Positions 5,871 through 58,896 of a stretch of 64,000 nucleotides of DNA are shown piece after piece (position 1 is the first letter of the stretch; every line of letters begins with the position of its first letter). The notes beneath the pieces were generated by a model that did not search any database, was not told where the DNA came from, and saw nothing but the letters and a program-made list of their open reading frames with translations. The translations under genes and the position numbers were made by a program. The DNA is from a virus: positions 32,001 through 96,000 of the IMG/VR virus record IMGVR_UViG_3300025168_000033. One strand, 5' to 3'.

Positions 5871-6515
5871 TCAGTCTTCATTCATCTTTGGTTTTTCATG
5901 AACGTAACCTAATTTACTAAACTTTTCGTGATCTTCTTGAGTTTCTGCTTTATATTCCTTTCCAGACTTAGGACAGTACATCATATGAGGTTCAAAATCT
6001 TTTCCTTCATTAGTTTCATCGTCATCACCATGTTTCTTACCACATGATTCATTTACAAAAACACCTTTAGGTACATCCATTAAAGTAACAGTTTTTCCGT
6101 CCCATGATATTACACCTACAGTATTTTTTTTCTTATCTACAATATAATAAGTATCTTTGTCTTCATCACCACCTTCTAAATTATGATCATCGTTAGATAA
6201 CATATCTTCTAGTTGATTAATGTCACCATCAAATTTGAAACTATTTTTACCTTCGTTAACTGATTCATTTGCTTTATACCATTTTGACAATTTTTTAACG
6301 TCTTTAGGCTTTAATTTGCTTGTTGAATCTGTTAATTCATAAGTAATCTTAGCAATAAAGTCTTTCTCATTATTAGCAACCTTTAAGGTATCTTCTAATG
6401 AAGCTTCTATTTGATCGTAATCTAAGGTTACTGTTTTACCTTCATATTCTGAATCTATTGAAAATTCATGTGAACTTTCATTTAACCATTCTTCGTAGCT
6501 TTGTAAATTTTTCAT
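5871..6515 (-). CDS. tagged putative internal head polyprotein
   Basis: N-term MKNLQSYEEWLNE; internal VNE/TNE sites; late promoter at 6537-6545. Confidence 0.65.
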   Translation of the reverse strand: MKNLQSYEEWLNESSHEFSIDSEYEGKTVTLDYDQIEASLEDTLKVANNEKDFIAKITYELTDSTSKLKPKDVKKLSKWYKANESVNEGKNSFKFDGDINQLEDMLSNDDHNLEGGDEDKDTYYIVDKKKNTVGVISWDGKTVTLMDVPKGVFVNESCGKKHGDDDETNEGKDFEPHMMYCPKSGKEYKAETQEDHEKFSKLGYVHEKPKMNED

Positions 6516-22954: not shown

Positions 22955-23671
22955 TTAACTAAAACTATCTTCATCCCAGTCGTCTTCGTTATTAATCCAA
23001 CCTTGATCTGGATCGCTTTCAGCAGATGTAGTAAAATCATGACGCTTCCAGTTAAAATTACTTTTAGCTACTAAAGCAGGATATAAAATTTTTCCTCTTG
23101 GTGCTTTTGTTTTTTTCTTACCAAATTCAATATCTATTCCAATTGATCTGTCTGCATCAGGATATCCGTTCATTTTAGCAAGTAATTCATAGTAATCCAT
23201 ACCACCAAATTCACCGTATCCTTCATATTTATTTTCAGCCCATTTATTACCTTCATTATCAAACATAAACATTTTGATTCTATTTCCAGGCATGTTACCT
23301 ATTTGCTGACCTGTGTCCTGAGTAAACCAAGAATATTGTCCTTCGTTTAATTCATTAGATTCATTTACAGGTTCCATACCTGTTCGGCGTTTAACATATT
23401 CCATTATTTCTGTATAAGAAACAGATTCAGGATATTCAGGTTTTCCAGTAGTAGTTAAAGATTTCTTTTTAAAATCTGCAGTTATTGTAAAGCTTCCTGA
23501 TGCTGGTGTAATTTCTAAAATATCACCGCTTACTGAGGCAGTAAATCTTTTAGGCTTTAAAAATGAACTAAAATGTTTAGATTCTTTATTTAAGAAATCT
23601 GCAAGAGTCGATGGAGATTCATCATGTTTAGATTCATTAACGAATTCGTCAAATGACTGTATATTTTTCAT
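22955..23671 (-). CDS. tagged two-domain putative internal head protein
   Basis: MKNIQSFDEFVNE; internal PVNESNELNE|G splits two domains. Confidence 0.65.
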   Translation of the reverse strand: MKNIQSFDEFVNESKHDESPSTLADFLNKESKHFSSFLKPKRFTASVSGDILEITPASGSFTITADFKKKSLTTTGKPEYPESVSYTEIMEYVKRRTGMEPVNESNELNEGQYSWFTQDTGQQIGNMPGNRIKMFMFDNEGNKWAENKYEGYGEFGGMDYYELLAKMNGYPDADRSIGIDIEFGKKKTKAPRGKILYPALVAKSNFNWKRHDFTTSAESDPDQGWINNEDDWDEDSFS

Positions 23672-24192: not shown

Positions 24193-25869
24193 TTAATATA
24201 TTCCGTATTGAGAGAATATACCAAAAGTAATATAGTTTGTTTCTGGGTGATGTCCAGCTTCAACTAATGCGAATCTAGATTTAACCGCAATTTTAGGAGC
24301 CATTGTTCCTTCAGCGATAGTTTCTACTGATTCAGCCATTAAGTAAGGCATGAATACCAATCCAGGTGAATTACCATCTCCTTTTCTTCCAACTAATACT
24401 CTGTTGTCAGACCAAGCCATGTTAGGATCAACATAAACAGCTACACCTCCAATTGTTCCAACTGGGTAAAGTGAACCACCTACTTGATTTAAAGTATTTG
24501 CCATTGGCGCAGCGATAAAACCAGCACTATCTTGTAAAGCAGTAGCGATTTGACCGTTTGTTACCATGAAGTTAGCATTACCTCTTCTTCCTCTGATAGC
24601 AATCATGTTAGCACAAGCAAGAACCTTACTAAAGATCTTTCTTTGTCTTGTATGAATGTTTTCTGAAGTAGATATAGTAGTACCTTCAGTTGCAGGAACA
24701 GGAGTAGTAAAATCACCTACTCTGTTAGCTCCAGTAGAATCAATTGCAGATCCAAAAGAACCAATTGCAGTTGTAGTATTAGATAAGTTCAAGTGGAAAT
24801 GAACATTTTGAGTTTTAGAAATATTTGCATGGTTTTTAACACCTAATTTAAACAATCTTTCTAAGATGTTTTTGTTGATTGATTGAGTCAATTCATTTGC
24901 AAGAACAGCTTCAACCTGAGCAACAGCATCAACACCAAATTGTTTTAAATCTTGAACTTGTTCTCTTGTAACTGCAGCAGCAACTTGGAAAGTTTTAGCT
25001 TCAACAGATTGATTGAACAATGTCAAGTTCATGATATTATCTTGAGTTGTTTCACCAGCATCTCTTGAATAAGGATCATTAGATCCATAAGAATTACCAG
25101 AGAATCCAGTAATATGATCTTCTAGAGATTTTACTAATGAAGCAGCAGAAGTTTGATCAGCTCCGTCTTGAACACCAACTGCGGTTGCAGAAGTAGCAGC
25201 ATAAACAGCCCATGAACCATCAATACAATCAGCAATTGAAGGAGCAGTAGTAGTATTACCTACACTATAAACATTACCAGTAGCAATAGTACCAGTAGAA
25301 ATTACTTCAAAGATACTAAATCCATCAATTCTAGAAGTTCCTAAGAATTTAGAATAAATTGCGTTAGCATTGTTACCAGTTGTTCCAGCAGAAGCTAAGA
25401 AGTGATTATCATTAACAACAAGAGTTGAATCAGTAGTATCAACCTTGATTATAGCAGGATTATTATCAGTTCCTTTAGCATCCAATTTTCCACCTCCGTA
25501 AACGAAGTCTAAATAAGTTAAAACACCCATTGGTCCAGGCATTGGTATAACTGGTACTAGGTCTAAACCTACAGTATTTGCAGCAACTTGCATTGCTAAA
25601 GGTAATAAAGTGTGAGCTTTATCTCCTGATCCTTTTACACCACCGGCAAAACCGTCTTGTGATCCTGGGGGTCCAGGGAATTTTGTTGCTCCCATTCCGT
25701 TTACACCACCTAAAGTTGCGTAAGCGTTGTTTTCGTAAAGCTCATGGTTATGACAGTATTTTGACATCCATTCAACAGTATTACGGTCTTTAATTCCCGT
25801 AGTAGACTCGATGATCGGTGCCCATTTACTCATAACCTCAGCTTCGTTAATCATTTTATGTCCGTACAT
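24193..25869 (-). CDS. gp23: major capsid protein
   Basis: KWAPII, V.PM.GP.G...YLD..Y, V.AK......T.E..QDL...G.DA...L.NE..Q.IN..I, RG..NF, YVDP, G.KG....GL.F.PY, PK..VKSR. Confidence 0.93.
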   Translation of the reverse strand: MYGHKMINEAEVMSKWAPIIESTTGIKDRNTVEWMSKYCHNHELYENNAYATLGGVNGMGATKFPGPPGSQDGFAGGVKGSGDKAHTLLPLAMQVAANTVGLDLVPVIPMPGPMGVLTYLDFVYGGGKLDAKGTDNNPAIIKVDTTDSTLVVNDNHFLASAGTTGNNANAIYSKFLGTSRIDGFSIFEVISTGTIATGNVYSVGNTTTAPSIADCIDGSWAVYAATSATAVGVQDGADQTSAASLVKSLEDHITGFSGNSYGSNDPYSRDAGETTQDNIMNLTLFNQSVEAKTFQVAAAVTREQVQDLKQFGVDAVAQVEAVLANELTQSINKNILERLFKLGVKNHANISKTQNVHFHLNLSNTTTAIGSFGSAIDSTGANRVGDFTTPVPATEGTTISTSENIHTRQRKIFSKVLACANMIAIRGRRGNANFMVTNGQIATALQDSAGFIAAPMANTLNQVGGSLYPVGTIGGVAVYVDPNMAWSDNRVLVGRKGDGNSPGLVFMPYLMAESVETIAEGTMAPKIAVKSRFALVEAGHHPETNYITFGIFSQYGIY

Positions 25870-25897: not shown

Positions 25898-27736
25898 TTA
25901 AATTTTGTTTGTTTTGAATCGTTTTGCTAATCCTTCAGTAACTGCATCCATATAAGAACTTGTAACTTTAACTTCGTTTATCGATTCAGAATTTGCAATT
26001 GCAGATTCATTAATCGGTTGAATTATTTCAGATCTCAAATCTCTTGTCGACCAAAAATGATCGATTTGATATTGTGATTCTAAAACACTAACAGAAGCTT
26101 GTAATTTAATTTCTTCTTGTTTGCTTTCACTTAAAGAATCATAAGACTCTTTATATTTAGCTGGGATATTTTCCAACCAATTTAAAACTTTAGGTTCGGG
26201 TGTTGTTGCTGATTCCCATATTCTTTCAACATCTCTAGTTCCGAAGTATTTGTTATTTTTAAATGCAAGTATCAAGTCACCTTGAGAGCTTTCATTTAAT
26301 TTTGCAAATTCACTTCTCTTAGATTCCGTTACAAAATGTAGGAAATGCAAGTCCTTATCTTCAGTTACTGCTTTTTGCTTCTTAGCAGATTCAAGTAAAG
26401 TATTTATCTTAGTACTGATATCATTCTTAAAGTTATCATTACTTTCTATAATTAAATTTTCTTTAGGTTCCGATTGCTTACTTATTCTACCATTACCTTC
26501 ATTAATTAATTTTGCACCGTTAAGTTCAGCAAAATTTTCATTAATATCGTTAATAGAATGTTCGGTATATGAACCTAGAGTTTCTAGATTTTCTTTAATA
26601 TATTCAGTAAAATTAGCAACATGTTCCATGTTCTCAACAATATAATCGTTATGAGAAATAAGAGTATCTACTGATTCATTAATTGTAGTTTGATATTCAA
26701 ATCTTGAATTAACTTCTTCACTAATGTGTTTAGAATATTCAATTGAATTATCAACTGATTCAGCAACCATTTTACTATATTCGATTGAATTATCAAGGTT
26801 TTCAGCCAATGATTTACTATATTCAATTCCTTGATCGGTCTTAAGAGCAACCAATTCACTATAATCTTTAACTGATTCAAGACCTTCAACAATATAATCA
26901 TTATGTGCAATTAGGTTGTCTGTATTTTCTTCAACCTTATTGATTTTTGAATTCATTGAATTTACTTCCTTAGCAATAGTTTCAACCCACTCTACAATTT
27001 GTGATTGTTCCTTTGTATTATTAGAAGGTATATCAGATTCGTTTATAGATTTGATTGATTCCTGGATCTTATTGAATTGTTCAGTGATATATTTTGAATA
27101 TTTATCGAACTGATCCATTGAGATGAATGATTCACCTTTAGTTTCGTTTATTGCAACTTCTGGTGCGTCAACTTGAGTTAAACCGTTATTTGTGTTATCC
27201 ATTTCAAATATTTGTATTGTATCGTCGTTTTGTAAGCCAAATGATTCATTGACTCTGTTTAATTGTGCATTTTCAAATCCTGGATCTGCAACCAAATCAT
27301 AAGTAAATAATCTTTTAACTTTTACATGATTATTTGATTCAACAACACCAGCTGCTCTAGATGAAATATGTATTGGAACTCCTGCATCAACTAATGCCTT
27401 TGCTTGTTTTCCAGCATCAGTATCAAGTAGCTTAATTCTACCTCTTACTTGTTTTGAAGATTTATCGTAAGATATTTCTTCTATAACATGTGATACATTT
27501 TTTAATGATACTTCGAATTGTTTTGGATGATCCAGTTCTCCTAGAATTTTTCTATCTTTAACTTTTTTAGCTAATTCTTCCACATGAGGAACAAATTCAG
27601 CTTCATCGTAAATTCGATTGTTTTTATTTTTTGTGCCTATTTCCGAAAAAATTCCTTCCAGTATATAATCGCCATTAGCGGTTTTCTGGAATTCTGCCTC
27701 AGAAACTGATCTTTCAAGAATCAGTAAGTTTTTCAT
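25898..27736 (-). CDS. gp21: prohead protease (gp21) fused to scaffold/core (gp22-like); start likely MKNLLILE at 27736
   Basis: LEGIF, NKNNRIY, LGELDHP, VSH.I, ISSRAAG, YDLVADPGF; long helical repeat C-terminus; late promoter at about 27769-27779. Confidence 0.88.
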   Translation of the reverse strand: MKNLLILERSVSEAEFQKTANGDYILEGIFSEIGTKNKNNRIYDEAEFVPHVEELAKKVKDRKILGELDHPKQFEVSLKNVSHVIEEISYDKSSKQVRGRIKLLDTDAGKQAKALVDAGVPIHISSRAAGVVESNNHVKVKRLFTYDLVADPGFENAQLNRVNESFGLQNDDTIQIFEMDNTNNGLTQVDAPEVAINETKGESFISMDQFDKYSKYITEQFNKIQESIKSINESDIPSNNTKEQSQIVEWVETIAKEVNSMNSKINKVEENTDNLIAHNDYIVEGLESVKDYSELVALKTDQGIEYSKSLAENLDNSIEYSKMVAESVDNSIEYSKHISEEVNSRFEYQTTINESVDTLISHNDYIVENMEHVANFTEYIKENLETLGSYTEHSINDINENFAELNGAKLINEGNGRISKQSEPKENLIIESNDNFKNDISTKINTLLESAKKQKAVTEDKDLHFLHFVTESKRSEFAKLNESSQGDLILAFKNNKYFGTRDVERIWESATTPEPKVLNWLENIPAKYKESYDSLSESKQEEIKLQASVSVLESQYQIDHFWSTRDLRSEIIQPINESAIANSESINEVKVTSSYMDAVTEGLAKRFKTNKI

Positions 27737-27819
27737 ATTTGTAGGTTTATTTTTAGCTTGGCTATTTGTTATATATATCAAGTTCACATTTACAAATGTG
27801 GTATCATTTTATAATACTT

Positions 27820-32000: not shown

Positions 32001-32030
32001 ATTATATACCAGTCACATGTTATTGTTTCA
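32001..32030 (-). promoter_or_regulatory. middle-type promoter TGAAAC-N16-TATATAAT upstream of gp55
   Basis: same architecture upstream of several replication genes. Confidence 0.6.
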
Positions 32031-48719: not shown

Positions 48720-49358
48720 TTAATCAATACCCATTACGTTATTAAAACCTTGCTGTTTCAAAGCTTTTATTCCGTTATCTTGATGTCTTTTATTTTCACC
48801 TTCAACTTCGTAATATCCGCCATTTGCATCAACATGAGCTTTAATTTTTTTAGATGCAAAGTATTTTTCAATATATAATAATTGTTGAGACCTATTAAAA
48901 TCTCTAAATTCATTATGATCGAATTCCATTGATTCATTTACGAATCTTGAGAATTTCATAAATGCTGATTCATCTACTTCATCCTCGTCTTCATCATCAA
49001 TATCGCCATTTAAGCTATGAATTTTATCACCACTTCCGTTAGGTAATCCACCGTCGGCTCCAGGCATTGAAGTAGGACCCATTCCATTTACATTTCCTGG
49101 AGTTACTTCTTCTATCAATTGATCATTATCAAATTTTATGGCTGAAGTTGTATTATAATCACTAATTCTTGATTTAATACCATAAAGATCCATCATCATT
49201 TTAACAACAGTAGAACCTTTCTTTTTATCTTTCAATTGAAAGTAAGTTACTTTATCATTTGATTGAGATATTATTTGACTCACATATTGACTCAACTCTT
49301 TAGAAATATCTAATGCTGAATCACCTGATAATTGTCCTTTAAAGTTTGATTCGTTCAT
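48720..49358 (-). CDS. putative internal head polyprotein with internal tag and capsid-like N-arm motif
   Basis: MNE|S start, LIEE|VTPGNVNGMG...GSGDK, internal FMKFSRFVNE. Confidence 0.55.
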   Translation of the reverse strand: MNESNFKGQLSGDSALDISKELSQYVSQIISQSNDKVTYFQLKDKKKGSTVVKMMMDLYGIKSRISDYNTTSAIKFDNDQLIEEVTPGNVNGMGPTSMPGADGGLPNGSGDKIHSLNGDIDDEDEDEVDESAFMKFSRFVNESMEFDHNEFRDFNRSQQLLYIEKYFASKKIKAHVDANGGYYEVEGENKRHQDNGIKALKQQGFNNVMGID

Positions 49359-49364
49359 ATTGAT

Positions 49365-50102
49365 TTATTTTTTATAAGGAGCTCTAACATCGATTTTACC
49401 GCCACTTAATTCTTTTGCAACTTTATCAACCTGTTCTGGTTCAATCTTTGGCATATCCGCTCTTGGTGGTGCACCTTCTGGTGGTCCAACTCTTTGAATA
49501 GCAGCTAAGGCTTTTGCAATTGTAGCTTCACCTCTTTTTTCAAACCAAGCAATAGCTTTTTCTTTATTATAGAATTTTTTATCCATTCCTTCACCGTCAT
49601 AGATTGCAGCTTTAACATTATCCATAGTTGATGTGAAAATATTAGCATCTCCAGCAACAGCTAGACCTCTTTTATTTCCTAATGCATCTCCGGCAGCTCT
49701 AAGAACTGGAACTAAATCACCAATATTTAATTCAGATTGTACTCCTGTTACTTTTGCAGAAGGATTGTTGAACATTGTAGCAGCCCATCTATGATGACCA
49801 TCTAGAATTCTGTTATCTTGTGAAATAACAGCACCAAGATCTCCACCTTCAACTCCTACAATAGCCATACTTAATGCCTTAGCTAAATAAACTGCATCCT
49901 GTGATGGCTTTAATGATTTAGCTGGAATAGAAGCTTTTTTAGTTACTACTACATCGTCTTGAGTATCTCCATCTTTTTTACCAGCTTTAAAAAATTCCTT
50001 GTCATTTTTATTTCCAGGATTTGGAAATTTTGATGGATCGATTTCTTTAGTTTTTAAGCTTTCATTAATAACGAATTGCTCAAATGATATTAATTTTTTC
50101 AT
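49365..50102 (-). CDS. tagged ParB/sulfiredoxin-like protein
   Basis: MKKLISFEQFVINE; LKPSQ, VISQDNRILDGHHRWAA. Confidence 0.7.
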   Translation of the reverse strand: MKKLISFEQFVINESLKTKEIDPSKFPNPGNKNDKEFFKAGKKDGDTQDDVVVTKKASIPAKSLKPSQDAVYLAKALSMAIVGVEGGDLGAVISQDNRILDGHHRWAATMFNNPSAKVTGVQSELNIGDLVPVLRAAGDALGNKRGLAVAGDANIFTSTMDNVKAAIYDGEGMDKKFYNKEKAIAWFEKRGEATIAKALAAIQRVGPPEGAPPRADMPKIEPEQVDKVAKELSGGKIDVRAPYKK

Positions 50103-50144: not shown

Positions 50145-50459
50145 TTAGTCATAAACTACTGCACCATCATCACCATAAGTAAATACTGCGGTTTCACCTT
50201 CTAGATCTAAAGCAATTACATCTTCATCAGGCTCTAAAAAATCTCCGGCAGTTCCAGAATCGTCATATTTTTTAAGGTCTTTCATCTTGCCTTTAGCAAT
50301 AACATTATAGACATCTCCATGATAATCCTCAGCTTTATCACCAACCTTTACTTTATTAAAAGGCTTTATTTTTTTAGCTTCATTAACTTCATCGTTAGTT
50401 GATTCTTTTAAATTATAAGATTCATTTACAAAATCTTCAAATGATTCAATATTTCTCAT
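50145..50459 (-). CDS. tagged small SH3/KOW-like protein
   Basis: MRNIESFEDFVNE..LKE..VNE|A; KVKVGD. Confidence 0.6.
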   Translation of the reverse strand: MRNIESFEDFVNESYNLKESTNDEVNEAKKIKPFNKVKVGDKAEDYHGDVYNVIAKGKMKDLKKYDDSGTAGDFLEPDEDVIALDLEGETAVFTYGDDGAVVYD

Positions 50460-50487: not shown

Positions 50488-52713
50488 TTAAAGTGATCTA
50501 TATTTCTTTTGAATAGCCTGCCAAACTTTTTCTGGTGTAGTATTTCTACCGGTAGCAAATTTATTAACGCTAGTAGAACCACGTTTATTAGGTGAAGTTA
50601 TTGATAATTGAATGAAAGGTTTGTCACCAATTTCGTTATATTGGAATGCCCATATTAATGCTAATTCATCAACTTTAACAGTGAATTCTACTGCACCATA
50701 AAAGTTTTCTTTTACATCTTCAACCTTCATATTTCCTAAATATTTGTCACCCTTTAATAAAAATTCCGTAAAAGATTTATACCAGTCGTTCGATCTTTTT
50801 TCAAATTCTGACAACGGCCATGCTTCATTAACAGATTCAAATTTCAGATTTTGAGTAACTTCTGGTGGAAGATCGTTATATTCAGAATCAATATATTTTT
50901 CTACATTATCTGGGTCTTTAACTGCTGTTAATAGTGCTGATTCTCTTTCGTCATCACTTAATTCATCCCATTTAATTGATTTTTGAGATTTCTCGTTTAA
51001 AAATTCGTCTAGTGATTCCGCAACTAATTTCATGTTTGGCTTTGATTTTGTCTGATTAATATTATCAAATATTCGTTGTCCAAATTTAGAAAGTTGATAT
51101 GTTTTTTCACCGCTTTCATTTTTTGATACTTTAAAGTAATTCATGTTTGATTTGAACCATCGAGTTTGATTAACTGATTTTCCTAAATCTTCTTCAACAC
51201 GAATTAACATATCCTTGATTTGTTCTTCGGTCATTATATTGTTACCAATATATTTGATAATTGAATTACGTAAGGGTGCTTTTTCATTTATACGTCTAGC
51301 ATCATAAATTCCATATTTACGTTTAATAGTATGTTTAGCTTCATTAACACTAACTATCTTAGCTTGTTTTATACGTGATTTATTTACTAATTCTTTTTCT
51401 TTCGTTTCAGCTTCTTCTTTAGTTTTAAATATTCCAGATTTAGCATTTTCCCCATCTTGGGTTTTATATTCAACTCTAAAACCTTCCCCTGATTGATTAA
51501 CTGATTCAGTTATAGAATTCAACATTTCCTGTTTACTAAATACTAAGCTTTTTGGATGACTTGAAAGTTCAAATGTAGTACTATACATAGCACTAAGTTT
51601 AGCACCAATTTCTTTACCATTTTTATCTGTTACGATATATTCATTGAAAGCGTTTGACTTTCTACCATAATCAGTAACAGTATAAACATTAGTATCTGTA
51701 TTAAATTTAGATCCGATTTCTATTTTATTGAAAATTTTAGTACCTAGCATACTGATTTTACTTCCAGAAATAGTTCCCTCATTTAAGTCATAAGATTCAC
51801 TAAATAATCTTCTACCTGTTTTATCTTCTAGATGTAATTTTGCTTTAGGATATTTCTCTTGCATTACATTAAATGTAGCAGGAGCAACATCTGGAGTAGA
51901 AACTGGTTCTTGATGAATTACTTTGCCATCTTGTATAACTACAATTACTGCTGGATAGCTTCCTTGAGTTGCAGCTTTATATACTTTACGTCTAGATGCT
52001 TCAGTAACTAATGATTCATCCATTACCATATATTTAGATGGAACTATAAATTCTCCTTGTCCACTTTTTACAATCATTCCTTTATTACCACGAGTCATCT
52101 TAATAACTTTATAAACATCGTCATAATCTAAAGAAACACCTTCCTTATCTAGAATTTCTTCAACAAAATGTGGAGCTCCCAGAACTACAAAATCACCTTT
52201 CTTGAATTTAGATTCGTTAATTTCTTTATTTTCCTCATTTGCTAAAGGATTAGGAATAGTAATTGATTTACCTTGATAAAATCTCTTTTTTAGTTTATCA
52301 ATAGTATCATTCTTCTTTAAATAGTAAGGATGCTCATATTGATCTGAATCATCTCCTACAATAAGAATAATATGTTCTCCTTCATCAGAACTATATATTT
52401 TAAAGTCTGAACCTAATACTTTACCTTTTATATTCTTTTTAGCCTCATTTACAGATTCGGTATATAATATTTCAGAATCAAAATTATATTTAGGACCATC
52501 TTGTTCAGCATCTTGTACATCTATAGTTCCGTTTTTATTAATATTGATAACTCTGAATTCAGTTCCAACTGAGGCACCTTTATGCATTTCTTCATCTCTA
52601 TCATCGTCACCAGTTTGATATATTACAACAATATCACCGACTTTTGATCGTTCGCCATTGTAATATTTTGCAGATGCCTCATTCAAGAAGTCTTCAAATT
52701 TTTCTATTGCCAT
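50488..52713 (-). CDS. tagged multidomain polyprotein
   Basis: MAIEKFEDFLNE; about 8 internal (V/I/L)(N/T)E junctions separating small domains. Confidence 0.65.
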   Translation of the reverse strand: MAIEKFEDFLNEASAKYYNGERSKVGDIVVIYQTGDDDRDEEMHKGASVGTEFRVININKNGTIDVQDAEQDGPKYNFDSEILYTESVNEAKKNIKGKVLGSDFKIYSSDEGEHIILIVGDDSDQYEHPYYLKKNDTIDKLKKRFYQGKSITIPNPLANEENKEINESKFKKGDFVVLGAPHFVEEILDKEGVSLDYDDVYKVIKMTRGNKGMIVKSGQGEFIVPSKYMVMDESLVTEASRRKVYKAATQGSYPAVIVVIQDGKVIHQEPVSTPDVAPATFNVMQEKYPKAKLHLEDKTGRRLFSESYDLNEGTISGSKISMLGTKIFNKIEIGSKFNTDTNVYTVTDYGRKSNAFNEYIVTDKNGKEIGAKLSAMYSTTFELSSHPKSLVFSKQEMLNSITESVNQSGEGFRVEYKTQDGENAKSGIFKTKEEAETKEKELVNKSRIKQAKIVSVNEAKHTIKRKYGIYDARRINEKAPLRNSIIKYIGNNIMTEEQIKDMLIRVEEDLGKSVNQTRWFKSNMNYFKVSKNESGEKTYQLSKFGQRIFDNINQTKSKPNMKLVAESLDEFLNEKSQKSIKWDELSDDERESALLTAVKDPDNVEKYIDSEYNDLPPEVTQNLKFESVNEAWPLSEFEKRSNDWYKSFTEFLLKGDKYLGNMKVEDVKENFYGAVEFTVKVDELALIWAFQYNEIGDKPFIQLSITSPNKRGSTSVNKFATGRNTTPEKVWQAIQKKYRSL

Positions 52714-52730
52714 AATATAATTTTCTTTTA

Positions 52731-53585
52731 TTATTTATCTTCAGATAGTTCGTCTTTTAATTGAGGATAATATTGATGTGTAGTTGTATCAGTCATGGAT
52801 TTGAATGATTTTATATCATCTTCTATTAAAGCTTTACGAACTTTAGATGCACTAATATTATCATCAGTACGTTTTATTTCATGAGCTTTAAATTCTGGAT
52901 CTACATTTAAATCCAATCTATAAGAATCTTTTTGAATTTGACCGCTATAGGCTTTTAATCTATCTGATCCAGTACCCCACAAAATAGGCTCATATTCAGG
53001 ACGTAATTCATTATAAATTGTATCTATACCCGCTCTTGAAATAGTTCTGAATCCTTCTATAAATTTATGTTTCTTTGCAAGATCGTTAAATATTTGCTCT
53101 ATTAAACCTTCACTAAACGGTGTTTTTTCCTTGTTAATTTTCTTTGCACGCACCATAAGTACTATTACAGGATATCCATTTTCTTCGGACAAAGATTTAA
53201 GAACTTTTATATGTCCTAGCGTCGGAGGTTGAAAACGTCCCGCAATAATATTAACTTTTTTATTGCCAGGTTCTGTTGAATCTACCTTTAAAGCTTCATT
53301 TAAAGATTCAGATATTTTTCCGGTTTTAGATACTTTATAATATGTAGGTATTTTATCCCAATCTTTACCGTTAGTTTTTATGCCTGAATACATTTGATTT
53401 TTATCACTTTTCCATGCACCACCAGTTCCATCTTTATATTTGATCATGGTTGGTGTTTCTTCATAAAACCACCAATCGCCATCAGAATGCTGTGCTAAAT
53501 ATCTTGCCCAATCTGGGATATTTTTAAATTTAGGAAATTGTTTTCCTTCATTTATGAAATCAAAAAATCTTTTGAATCTATTCAT
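52731..53585 (-). CDS. tagged HxGH-type (cytidylyltransferase-like) nucleotidyltransferase with an N-terminal extra domain
   Basis: MNRFKRFFDFINE; ISESLNE| then GRFQPPTLGH, GSDR, ISASKVR. Confidence 0.75.
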   Translation of the reverse strand: MNRFKRFFDFINEGKQFPKFKNIPDWARYLAQHSDGDWWFYEETPTMIKYKDGTGGAWKSDKNQMYSGIKTNGKDWDKIPTYYKVSKTGKISESLNEALKVDSTEPGNKKVNIIAGRFQPPTLGHIKVLKSLSEENGYPVIVLMVRAKKINKEKTPFSEGLIEQIFNDLAKKHKFIEGFRTISRAGIDTIYNELRPEYEPILWGTGSDRLKAYSGQIQKDSYRLDLNVDPEFKAHEIKRTDDNISASKVRKALIEDDIKSFKSMTDTTTHQYYPQLKDELSEDK

Positions 53586-54835: not shown

Positions 54836-55990
54836 TTATTTTATTTTCATTCCAATCATCATATTCTTATCGGAAATACCAATAACAATACCATCTCTTT
54901 CATATTCAGTTCCGTCAGCATAAGCACCAATTGGCTTAACATATTTAAATCCAAGATTTTTAATAAGTTTTGAAGTAATATCAAATCCTAGACTGGATTC
55001 AAATCCAGTAACTTTACCAAATCCAGTAACAAATCCTGTTTTAGCTGCAATTATACCTTTAGGATTTTTTTGAAATGCTTCAGGAGCAACAGTCTTAAAT
55101 TCTTTTACAAATGCTTTCCATATTGGATCACTAGATAATGTTTTTCTGTCCCAAGTAAAATCACGAATCATTGAAAAACTATCCGATTCAAATACTTCTA
55201 TTCCATTATCACCATAGAATTTTTTAATTATATCGTAAAGATCGTCCTTTGCATCTTGATTATTTTTTATAAAAACTTTTAACGGTCTTATTAGATTTAA
55301 AAAGTTTTTTCTACTAAGCTTCATTTCTTCATCTATAAATTCAGACTCATTAATAGATTTAAGATTTAATTCAATTAAAGTATTAACACCATCTCTATGA
55401 ACCTCAGAAAATTTGACATCACCAAAATCAGATAAAATATCTTTTAAAATTGTTGTATCTAATTCTATTATCTCATCTTTTAAATGTTCATAAGCAGAAG
55501 TATAAAATTGTAATTTGCCACTTCTTAATCGTGCTATTAATATTCCAATATTTTCAACTGCTAGCCAGGCATGCCTATTTCTTTTGCCTCTTCGACTTAC
55601 TTTACGAGCCATTAATTCTTCTATTAAAAGCGCTTGAAATCTAGAACTAGCCTGATCAACACCACTATAAGTAATATTATCTGTTACAAAAAAATCATAT
55701 AGTGTATCAGCTTTAAAAGTTTCATTTAATGGAAATGACCATTGTCTTGATGACATTGGTGCATAAGGAGCTAATTTCTTCCATGCCTTTTCAGCATCTT
55801 TACGTTTACCAGCTTTATCCAGATCCTGTATCATTTGATTAGTTGTTTCCCAATCAGCAATACCAGCCTTATAAGCTCTCGGATCATCACTCATCATATA
55901 AGTCCAATCCATAGATTTTAATTGTGCCTCAAGATCCTTGATAGTAACTCTTTCATTTAAGAAATCGTCAAACTTTTTAAATTGTCCCAT
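54836..55990 (-). CDS. tagged multidomain polyprotein
   Basis: MGQFKKFDDFLNE; DWTYMMSDD domain; PLNE, SINE, VFE junctions. Confidence 0.6.
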   Translation of the reverse strand: MGQFKKFDDFLNERVTIKDLEAQLKSMDWTYMMSDDPRAYKAGIADWETTNQMIQDLDKAGKRKDAEKAWKKLAPYAPMSSRQWSFPLNETFKADTLYDFFVTDNITYSGVDQASSRFQALLIEELMARKVSRRGKRNRHAWLAVENIGILIARLRSGKLQFYTSAYEHLKDEIIELDTTILKDILSDFGDVKFSEVHRDGVNTLIELNLKSINESEFIDEEMKLSRKNFLNLIRPLKVFIKNNQDAKDDLYDIIKKFYGDNGIEVFESDSFSMIRDFTWDRKTLSSDPIWKAFVKEFKTVAPEAFQKNPKGIIAAKTGFVTGFGKVTGFESSLGFDITSKLIKNLGFKYVKPIGAYADGTEYERDGIVIGISDKNMMIGMKIK

Positions 55991-57525: not shown

Positions 57526-58455
57526 TTATGCCATTTCACTTGGATAAGGAAATCCAGCCTTGACAATTCCTTCTTTATATACTTTTATTATTTCACTTAA
57601 TTTGTGTTTGTGAATAAATTTAGATGAATTCATCCAGTTCCAAATAGATTCGAATGAATTTAAATCATTCACCTTTCCTTCGGGTCCTAAAACAAATTTA
57701 GCAATATCATCAATATTTTTTGTAATAGCTTTGTCTGCACCTTTAATTGTAGATGCATTTTTCTTTCTTCCCCTTTTACCGTCAAATGATTTAGTTTGTA
57801 TTTTTAAACCGTCATGTGCAGTAAGAGTATATTTTTGAAAGTCTTTTACTAATCCTTCATATTCACCGCCAAATTCTTTCTTATAGATATTTGGTTCACC
57901 ATCAAAATCGATATTTTGAATAATATCATAAATAAGTTTAGTTCTATAAACTCCTTTATATTTTGATTCTTCTTTTGTAAAGTCTGGTGAATGATAAATG
58001 AATGTTGCTAATTTAATATCATCAACAACCATAAAATCTATTTGAACAAATTTATCTGTAATCTTGCCTTTTTCATCATACTGTGGAAATTTAATGTTTG
58101 TAACACCTAATCCTTTAGTAAGATTTGTTTCATATTTAGGAAATGTTTTTGTTAGTTGATTATAAACTTCCGTAACAACATCGCCAAATGATAATTTATT
58201 TGCAGCACCATAAACTAATCCGTTTATTGAAATATCAATATCACCAGATGTAGATCCAGCTTTCTTTTTAAATGTACTTCCTAATACACCATATTCATCT
58301 TTATTTAAACCAAGAACTGGCTTGATAAATGTCTTTAATAAAACGTCAAATGTCGGTTTTTGATATTCCGCTGGAATAGGATGAGTGCCATTAAATGCAT
58401 TACCTGATTCCAGTAATCTTTCTTCAACAAAAGCTTCAAATAATTTAAATTCCAT
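57526..58455 (-). CDS. tagged Pol-beta-superfamily nucleotidyltransferase
   Basis: MEFKLFEAFVEERLLE|SGNAF; LGS..KK....SGDIDI; VQIDFM (third Asp). Confidence 0.7.
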   Translation of the reverse strand: MEFKLFEAFVEERLLESGNAFNGTHPIPAEYQKPTFDVLLKTFIKPVLGLNKDEYGVLGSTFKKKAGSTSGDIDISINGLVYGAANKLSFGDVVTEVYNQLTKTFPKYETNLTKGLGVTNIKFPQYDEKGKITDKFVQIDFMVVDDIKLATFIYHSPDFTKEESKYKGVYRTKLIYDIIQNIDFDGEPNIYKKEFGGEYEGLVKDFQKYTLTAHDGLKIQTKSFDGKRGRKKNASTIKGADKAITKNIDDIAKFVLGPEGKVNDLNSFESIWNWMNSSKFIHKHKLSEIIKVYKEGIVKAGFPYPSEMA

Positions 58456-58470
58456 TTATTGATTATATTT

Positions 58471-58896
58471 TTAAGCTATTTTATACAATGCCTTATATAC
58501 TGTATTAATTTGCTTTTCTAATGTATTTAACTTTTTAGGATCCATTTTTTTAATAGATTCAGCAACCCAATACTGTGTACCTTCATGACCTAAAAGAGCA
58601 ACTAAGTCACCGAATGCTTTCATAGTCGAACCTGCATTAGCTTCATTTACTACATCATTAACCGATTCATAAACATCGATTTCTGGATTTTTTGATTTAA
58701 TTAATTTCTTTTCCGCCGAGTCAATAGCATCACTTAAATTATCCTGATATTCAGGATTAATAAATCCTTCCCAATCACCAGAATTTTGTAATTCAGTTAA
58801 TCCAACTATACAGGCTTCTATTTCCATCTCTTCTAATTTAATATTAGATGCTTTACCCTCAGTTAAAAAGTCTTTATATGCTTTTATATTTTTCAT
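58471..58896 (-). CDS. tagged putative internal head protein
   Basis: MKNIKAYKDFLTE; internal VYESVNDVVNE|A. Confidence 0.6.
   Translation of the reverse strand: MKNIKAYKDFLTEGKASNIKLEEMEIEACIVGLTELQNSGDWEGFINPEYQDNLSDAIDSAEKKLIKSKNPEIDVYESVNDVVNEANAGSTMKAFGDLVALLGHEGTQYWVAESIKKMDPKKLNTLEKQINTVYKALYKIA

Follow-up and report, generated by a model that had tools for sequence, protein, structure and literature searches.

In bacteriophage T4, a leader of 10 residues, the capsid targeting sequence (CTS, MKTYQEFIAE), is alone sufficient for packaging; its residues 4 and 7 serve targeting and its residues 8 and 10 processing, and the T4 protease gp21 cuts after Glu in the motif L/I-x-E, as was first seen at a Glu-Ala bond (PMC9026906, PMC8442874). 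Polyvalent proteins are predicted to enter the host together with the DNA and are possibly released by proteolysis (PMC5512222). Here we describe an open reading frame (ORF) of 741 amino acids (aa) in a 64,000-nucleotide stretch of viral DNA (IMG/VR record IMGVR_UViG_3300025168_000033, positions 32,001 to 96,000), referred to in the following as the window. The window is part of a 108-kb contig (29–34% GC) of a large, uncultured marine phage, whose genes include those for a portal, a tail sheath, a terminase and replication proteins; every long ORF of the window lies on the (-) strand. As far as sequence comparison can tell, the 741-aa ORF probably belongs to an internal-protein system of the T4 type in which the cargo is organised as chains: loaded by an N-terminal tag, cut by a protease of family S77 at the leader and at the joints, and giving rise to products that stay with the DNA.

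The ORF has no significant family in Pfam or PHROGs. A preliminary description of the sequence had parsed it into about eight small domains joined by (V/I/L)NE linkers. The linkers are borne out by their number: the motif [VILM]-N-E is found at residues 10, 88, 165, 310, 456, 475, 572 and 628, that is, eight times versus approximately 0.79 expected (Poisson P ~2e-6), the expected rate of 0.107 per 100 aa being derived from the amino-acid composition of the contig. Two variant sites, likewise written in that description, are L-V-T-E (residues 235-238) and I-T-E (401-403), the latter followed by a degenerate S-V-N-Q. Eight of the 10 sites have A, G or S after the Glu (position P1'). No [VILM]-N-E is present in the tail sheath (1058 aa) or in other very large ORFs of the contig that lack the tag (1013, 1060 and 1210 aa). 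The sites divide the ORF into a 12-residue leader and nine modules of 55–116 aa (6.2–13.7 kDa), acidic or basic depending on the module; the modular parse stands, with nine modules rather than about eight following the tag. A further I-N-E at residues 475-477, absent from the earlier parse, falls inside module m8. The features are as follows, with P and L numbers denoting related sequences.

50488..52713, (-) strand: tagged multi-module ORF (putative polyprotein), 741 aa, 84.7 kDa
52678..52713, (-) strand: N-terminal tag, residues 1-12, ending in F-E-D-F-L-N-E and followed by A; leader type common to 23 ORFs of the contig
52444..52677, (-) strand: m2, residues 13-90, 8.8 kDa, acidic, orphan; sites after residues 12 and 90
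52213..52443, (-) strand: m3, residues 91-167; 79–87% identity to P0004 and P0151, where it directly follows the N-terminal tag with the border N-E followed by A
52000..52212, (-) strand: m4, residues 168-238; in P0152 it lies internally, with a tag-like F-L-N-E on one side and a V-I-N-E site on the other
51778..51999, (-) strand: m5, residues 239-312; of all cassettes the most widespread, present in about 100 of the top 150 clusters
51505..51777, (-) strand: m6, residues 313-403; 15 relatives, tagged and standalone in P0087 (102 aa)
51340..51504, (-) strand: m7, residues 404-458; a 78% identical stretch in L008 is flanked by M-N-E and L-N-E sites
50992..51339, (-) strand: m8, residues 459-574; basic arm, predicted winged-helix core (about 474-559), and a linker of V-A-E followed by S and a tag-like octapeptide; about 40 relatives
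50824..50991, (-) strand: m9, residues 575-630, acidic, helical; co-linear with m8 in P0059, P0094, P0149 and P0062
50491..50823, (-) strand: m10, residues 631-741, orphan; begins after F-E-S-V-N-E, with A as its first residue

The modules recur in related proteins, alone or in other arrangements. A HMMER scan of 1.84 billion representative proteins (threshold E < 1e-3) yielded 520 hits of 89–1531 aa. Only the query protein itself is matched over its full length; each hit otherwise covers one or two modules. Among the best 150 hits, m5 is represented in about 100, m8 in about 40 and m6 in 15, together with m3, m4, m7 and m9. Coverage of the query changes in steps at residues 227-238, 306-313 and 454-460, and drops more gradually at 558-575. 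When each match is projected to the first residue of the module, the motif x-(N/T/A/S/H/D)-E directly precedes m5, m8 and m6 in every listed instance (45 of 99 for m5, 40 for m8, 15 for m6), the Glu being part either of an N-terminal leader or of an internal E-S-hydrophobic-x-E linker. For example, m5 forms a standalone gene in P0082 (89 aa), is proximal to the tag in L001 and L004-L007, and lies inside the chains L002 and L003; all listed copies are preceded by Glu, and the approximately 68 conserved residues of m5 maintain 75–90% identity across very different chains. Module m6 has I-(N/T/L)-E at its end, and a second S-x-N-E frequently comes next. Besides P0082, P0087 is a tagged gene with a single module, and standalone genes span 89–150 aa. 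In P0004 and P0151, m3 comes straight after the tag and is followed by other sequence. Long chains with embedded modules are L002 (1247 aa), L003 (at least 1315 aa), P0002 (879 aa, with m5 twice) and P0043 (1531 aa); the longest reach 1531 aa with 15 linkers.

Thus six modules, m3 to m8, have independent relatives in other contexts, m9 occurs with m8, and the sets of modules vary between phages. The preliminary description had proposed that a homology search with each segment should find the segments standalone or shuffled in related phages; this is what we observe, with borders at the sites. By these comparisons the modules behave as cassettes over evolutionary time, encoded either as a tagged gene of their own or as one bead of a chain, with the cut-type site as the joint. 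The motif is enriched across the family as well: in 152 of its proteins, [VIL][NT]E occurs 623 times versus 70 in shuffled sequences, and linkers of the E-S type 348 times versus 18. In an all-against-all comparison, 57–67% of the internal ends of BLAST high-scoring segment pairs (HSPs) lie -6 to +12 residues from a strict site, versus 16–18% for random positions, a statistic that is non-independent and dominated by m5.

The relatives also bear on a more trivial explanation, namely that the ORF is a chimeric assembly or was miscalled by joining separate genes. The contig is indeed metagenomic, and the exact architecture is seen only once. Against this stand a frame that is open over 2226 nt in the standard code and dozens of independent contigs with analogous chains of up to 1531 aa and the same type of joint; an artefact is hardly credible.

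Structure prediction places the sites of one region relative to a fold. Residues 450-640 were modelled with AF2 using an alignment of 33 m8 relatives; the alignment of all modules was unsuited, because MAFFT stacked relatives of m8 and m3 onto the m5 columns. The model has a confident core at residues 480-557 (predicted local distance difference test, pLDDT, 93–97). Residues 450-479, which contain the sites at 458 and 477, are coil (pLDDT ~60), site 477 (the internal I-N-E) lying at the edge of the core. Residues 561-574 form a lone helix of low confidence that consists of the tag-like linker and ends at site 574; m9 is modelled as two helices (pLDDT ~86), and site 630 is in coil, with pLDDT under 50 just upstream (625-628). 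All four sites (458, 477, 574 and 630) fall in stretches with a pLDDT of about 50–60. In the modelled region there is accordingly no site within the packed core, whereas sites inside folded domains had been named beforehand as an observation that would speak against the polyprotein. The modelled m8 core is a winged helix with the order helix-helix-helix-strand-strand (wing) and a C-terminal helix, as in proteins of the MarR/PadR type, a class assigned by fold alone and not by DNA binding. Its closest structural match is RosR (6ez1_A; VIA Z 9.3, root-mean-square deviation 3.1 A over 81 residues); MarR, PadR and TubR proteins come next, and every top-ranking match is a winged-helix protein. The top rows in Foldseek are of the same class and weak (E 5e-3). 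For m5, a low-confidence model retrieved only unnamed or DUF clusters from the ESM Atlas (TM ~0.6), which gives no usable lead. The label KOW-like, previously given to m2 and m4, finds no match in Pfam, and the single-sequence AF2 model of the whole 741 aa is unusable (pLDDT 37).

The tags and linkers are encoded by varied synonymous codons, and selection therefore acts on the peptide. A recombination repeat at the DNA level as the source of the conserved joints is ruled out, as the codons differ among joints. The Glu at the start of m8 is at least 90% conserved, with the m8 modules only 29–54% identical to the query; at the I-N-E inside m8, the family keeps the Asn and loses the Glu. In another phage lineage (P0080, P0084, P0093, P0097, P0112 and other m8 relatives in alignment A1) the leader is of a G-L-F-K-F type, and the same peptide, between two x-N-E sites, joins internal modules, so that tag type and linker type change together. 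The counterpart in the 741-aa ORF is the V-A-E followed by S and a tag-like octapeptide that ends at residue 574. This segment (561-574) had been described as a second full tag, left by the fusion of a tagged gene. The tag-like octapeptide is indeed present; a relic start codon is not required, since Met 561 aligns with a conserved Met of the linker in the m8 family. The accompanying idea that the chain is packaged through one tag becomes doubtful, since the linkers, too, resemble tags, whether shortened or complete.

Such tag-like linkers could also be read differently. The ORF might be packaged via its N-terminal tag and remain an intact, uncut multi-domain (polyvalent) protein, its linkers being leftover tags from fused neighbouring tagged genes. 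Modules do occur as separately tagged genes, some linkers retain nearly the whole tag, and some polyvalent proteins, among them the N4 virion RNA polymerase, are packaged uncut (PMC5512222). However, most linkers are trimmed to the residues relevant for processing, and double sites a few residues apart are common. The Glu at position P1 is kept in every listed instance although the modules have diverged to 30–40% identity, which would not be expected of a decaying scar. We consider an uncut protein unlikely, and cutting at the joints remains the reading that we prefer.

The leader itself links the ORF to further genes. A regular-expression scan of the 108-kb contig identifies 23 ORFs that share one leader type (consensus MKNLQSYDEFLNE) and continue into unrelated sequence; the tagged ORFs other than the 741-aa ORF contain 1–4 N-E motifs each. 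The leader end F-E-D-F-L-N-E has the same spacing as Y-Q-E-F-I-A-E in T4. The preliminary description had invoked a gp21-family protease, and such a protease is encoded in the genome, with the motif of the joints recurring in its scaffold and at the N-terminus of the capsid protein.

25898..27787, (-) strand: prohead protease (Peptidase_S77, T4 gp21 family) with a scaffold-like tail; Pfam PF03420, E 6e-11, 42.6 bits versus a cut-off of 27
24193..25869, (-) strand: gp23-like major capsid protein; 56% identity to LR756500 (a 462-kb uncultured phage), about 40% to Lak megaphages

The Peptidase_S77 match lies within about the first 190 residues of the protease ORF. The remaining scaffold tail consists of a 14-residue repeat of which every unit ends in hydrophobic-x-E, and it contains 9 x-N-E sites. 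Within the repeat, the heptad Y-S/T-x-x-hydrophobic-A/N/S-E has the spacing of both the N-terminal tag and the T4 CTS. The repeat region comprises positions 26528-26920 (-), and a similar region is found in L009. A related contig that bears m5 also encodes an S77 protease-scaffold fusion ORF. The N-terminus of the capsid protein (25804-25869) contains M-I-N-E (site motif at residues 7-9, followed by A) and P-I-I-E (site motif at residues 19-21, followed by S or G); both sites are kept in the 56% identical capsid protein of LR756500 (L010 295-360). Judging from these positions, the capsid protein would have a very short propeptide (9 or 21 residues). The propeptide of T4 gp23 is far longer, with 65 residues.

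Taken together, we infer targeting to the prohead, cleavage, retention in the head, injection and any effector function for the products of the ORF. The 12-residue leader, a local version of the T4 CTS, would bring the chain into the prohead core during assembly, where the gp21-family (S77) protease would cut behind the Glu of hydrophobic-(N/T)-E motifs. Loss of the leader and cleavage of the linkers would turn the chain into about nine separate proteins of 6–14 kDa, roughly the size class of the T4 internal protein IPI*. One released product would be a basic winged-helix protein. The products would stay in the head and enter the host along with the DNA.

Several observations weigh against this scheme. 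Fragments of 6–9 kDa might exit the prohead as the scaffold peptides of T4 do (PMC9026906). Further hydrophobic-x-E triplets lie within modules at residues 184, 284, 494, 506, 634, 667 and 681, hence cutting must depend on accessibility. Outside residues 450-640, the module borders are placed by homology breakpoints only, and the HSP-end statistics carry the dependence stated above. For m2 and m10, no relatives were found in the protein-scale HMMER scan, in IMG/VR or in a word-index search, so that nothing shows them as separate units: IMG/VR scans with residues 13-239 and 575-741 gave no matches, and the word-index search found none for residues 575-741 and only three relatives for residues 13-239, all of which leave m2 uncovered. 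A tblastn search of the 741-aa ORF against 50,697 deposited phage genomes gave no match, and none of the modules was found in this set.

The possible loss of fragments leads to another role for the ORF, as an assembly accessory. It could act as filler or size determinant of the prohead core that is chopped like the scaffold, its fragments being expelled before DNA packaging. The scaffold tail of the protease ORF bears the same motif at high density, and T4 gp22, gp67 and gp68 are cut to many pieces that mostly leave the head (PMC9026906). The modules, however, are distinct, conserved and independently mobile, at least one of them has a confidently predicted globular fold (the winged helix), and sister tagged ORFs bear enzymes, for example a nucleotidyltransferase. 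The module content also varies from phage to phage, unlike that of an essential core part. We thus give such a filler a low probability and retain packaged cargo as the preferred interpretation.

A different objection concerns the capsid as such. The leader and the linkers could be signals for sorting, folding or translation, or sites for some other, cytoplasmic protease. The tie between tag and head does rest on inference, and a cluster of tagged genes at 49–59 kb is flanked by replication genes and does not lie among head genes. On the other hand, the leader is spaced like the T4 CTS, and the motif recurs at the capsid N-terminus and throughout the scaffold. The head protease of this genome is a member of the family whose cleavage sites are of precisely this type (PMC9026906), and further tagged ORFs of the contig are located amid head and tail genes. 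A function unrelated to the capsid is therefore very improbable, and we continue to favour the internal-protein chain.

The common spacing of tag and scaffold heptad allows for a more specific, tentative proposal. The tag may mimic one scaffold repeat, as the heptad of the scaffold has the same spacing. The tag and the linkers would then be copies of a single scaffold repeat, cargo would load by fitting the repeat mimic into the lattice of the core, and scaffold, tags and linkers would all be dissolved by one protease rule. We regard this as possible, though clearly short of probable.

The preliminary description had also stated that the same linkers split five other ORFs of the window (5871-6515, 22955-23671, 52731-53585, 54836-55990 and 58471-58896), and sites of the same type indeed divide all five. 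Together with the ORF adjacent to the chain they are as follows.

5871..6515, (-) strand: tagged ORF, sites after residues 88 and 156; residues 83-160 recur within P0107 (a 1090-aa chain)
22955..23671, (-) strand: tagged ORF, double site at residues 102-110; the stretch 102/108-225 is found next to the tag in P0147, P0071 and P0008 and at an internal position in P0050
50145..50459, (-) strand: adjacent tagged ORF; residues 4-103 match residues 208-315 of P0003, residues 19-104 match P0103
52731..53585, (-) strand: tagged ORF of a small module, a site after residue 97 and a putative nucleotidyltransferase (Pfam CTP_transf_like from residue 114); residues 10-98 are internal in P0135
54836..55990, (-) strand: tagged ORF, sites after residues 90 and 215; P0078 shares the stretch of residues 268-384
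58471..58896, (-) strand: tagged ORF, one internal site after residue 85 by motif count

Pieces of the tagged ORFs beginning at 5871, 22955, 23691, 50145, 52731 and 54836 recur within other chains. The shared stretch begins or ends at a site for those at 5871, 22955, 23691 and 52731, and for the one at 50145 only in its best match, P0103. In another phage, the module of 50145..50459 is fused behind an m8 module.

The ORF at 48720-49358 (-) begins with M-N-E followed by S, a minimal leader outside the tag pattern used for the count of 23; its first 88 residues are an internal module of the L003 polyprotein. Relatives of m8 often start with minimal leaders of the form M-x-x-L-N-E. The tagged set therefore exceeds 23. 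The tagged ORFs at 49365-50102 (-) and 57526-58455 (-) have no Pfam match at E 0.01; the former contains a D-G-H-H-R motif, seen by eye, that resembles ParB/sulfiredoxin. In L003 (4228-5823 and 5845-9792), the polyprotein of at least 1315 aa, with 14 sites, is encoded immediately downstream of the portal gene, a slot that is occupied in the window by the protease-scaffold ORF.

Few large phages are cultured and their injected proteins lack recognisable families, hence the proteins they inject are mostly unknown. If a tag together with cut-site joints marks packaged proteins, the payload of a phage would be readable from its sequence alone. The wider family comprises hundreds of modules, with m5 in about a hundred clusters, and its arrangement suggests a route by which new cargo is acquired and recombined, in the form of cassettes with a protease site at their borders. 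The chains would also serve as a natural template for packing several proteins into a capsid by means of a single gene, whereas the engineering of T4 nanoparticles now proceeds one protein at a time. If, in addition, the scaffold-repeat proposal were true, the system would amount to a plug-and-play bus for cargo, in which a gain of about 7 residues makes any small gene product packaged and deliverable and chains form and break freely at the joints. Marine jumbo phages would then hold a very large pool of injected proteins that could be recognised by computation, probably factors for anti-defence or host take-over.

The closest described system are the internal proteins of T4. Common to both are a short N-terminal leader on unrelated proteins, with the spacing aromatic-x-x-aromatic-hydrophobic-x-Glu (PMC9026906, PMC3012670, PMC8442874), a protease of the gp21 family (S77) with cutting, predicted for the phage considered here, after Glu in hydrophobic-x-E, and cargo that is small, diverse and fast-changing, a few of the modules here being basic. 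The differences lie in the organisation. T4 uses one gene per cargo and one cut beside the tag, whereas up to nine modules are found per ORF here (at least 15 in relatives), and each joint has a cut-type site; modules are exchanged between genes as cassettes; and the contig has 23 tagged ORFs, whereas in T4 a handful of proteins carry a CTS. Pfam and PHROGs detected no similarity in sequence between the 741-aa ORF and T4 IPI-III.

Polyvalent proteins (Iyer, Burroughs, Anand, de Souza and Aravind 2017; PMC5512222) likewise combine 2–15 unrelated modules per polypeptide, compared to nine here. They differ in their large, recognisable enzyme domains, in an anchor that is often MuF or portal, and in a predicted self-processing by an internal zincin-like peptidase. 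Neither Pfam nor PHROGs detects any of the hallmark domains (MuF/portal anchor, zincin-like MPTase, ART, DdrB-ParB, primase and others) in the 741-aa ORF, which instead has a tag of the T4 type and joints that match a separate head protease. Giant phages (phiKZ gp175, 201phi2-1, SPN3US gp245) have gp21-like proteases that process many head and ejection proteins behind the Glu of a three-residue motif, in some cases at several sites of one protein (PMC10052503, PMC9026906). There, the additional cuts shred a disposable N-terminal propeptide and leave one mature fragment; here, the pieces are conserved and occur independently. The polyproteins of RNA viruses and retroviruses also give several products per ORF, with joints that are sites of the virus's own protease, as is predicted here. 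Those chains encode the replication and structural machinery in fixed order, in contrast to accessory modules of free order and number, and the 741-aa ORF would be cut inside the assembling capsid of a DNA phage.

Our search of the literature found no paper on tagged chains of shuffling modules joined by head-protease sites, and the description of a lineage of large aquatic Bacteroidota phages related to Lak phages (PMC12619734) makes no mention of such chains. By homology breakpoints that fall at sites and by the model of residues 450-640, protease-type sites stand at the borders of independent units in the 741-aa ORF, as in a viral polyprotein. The CTS-directed packaging of T4, the multi-site head proteolysis of phiKZ-like phages (PMC10052503) and the polyvalent proteins (PMC5512222) each cover a part of this system.

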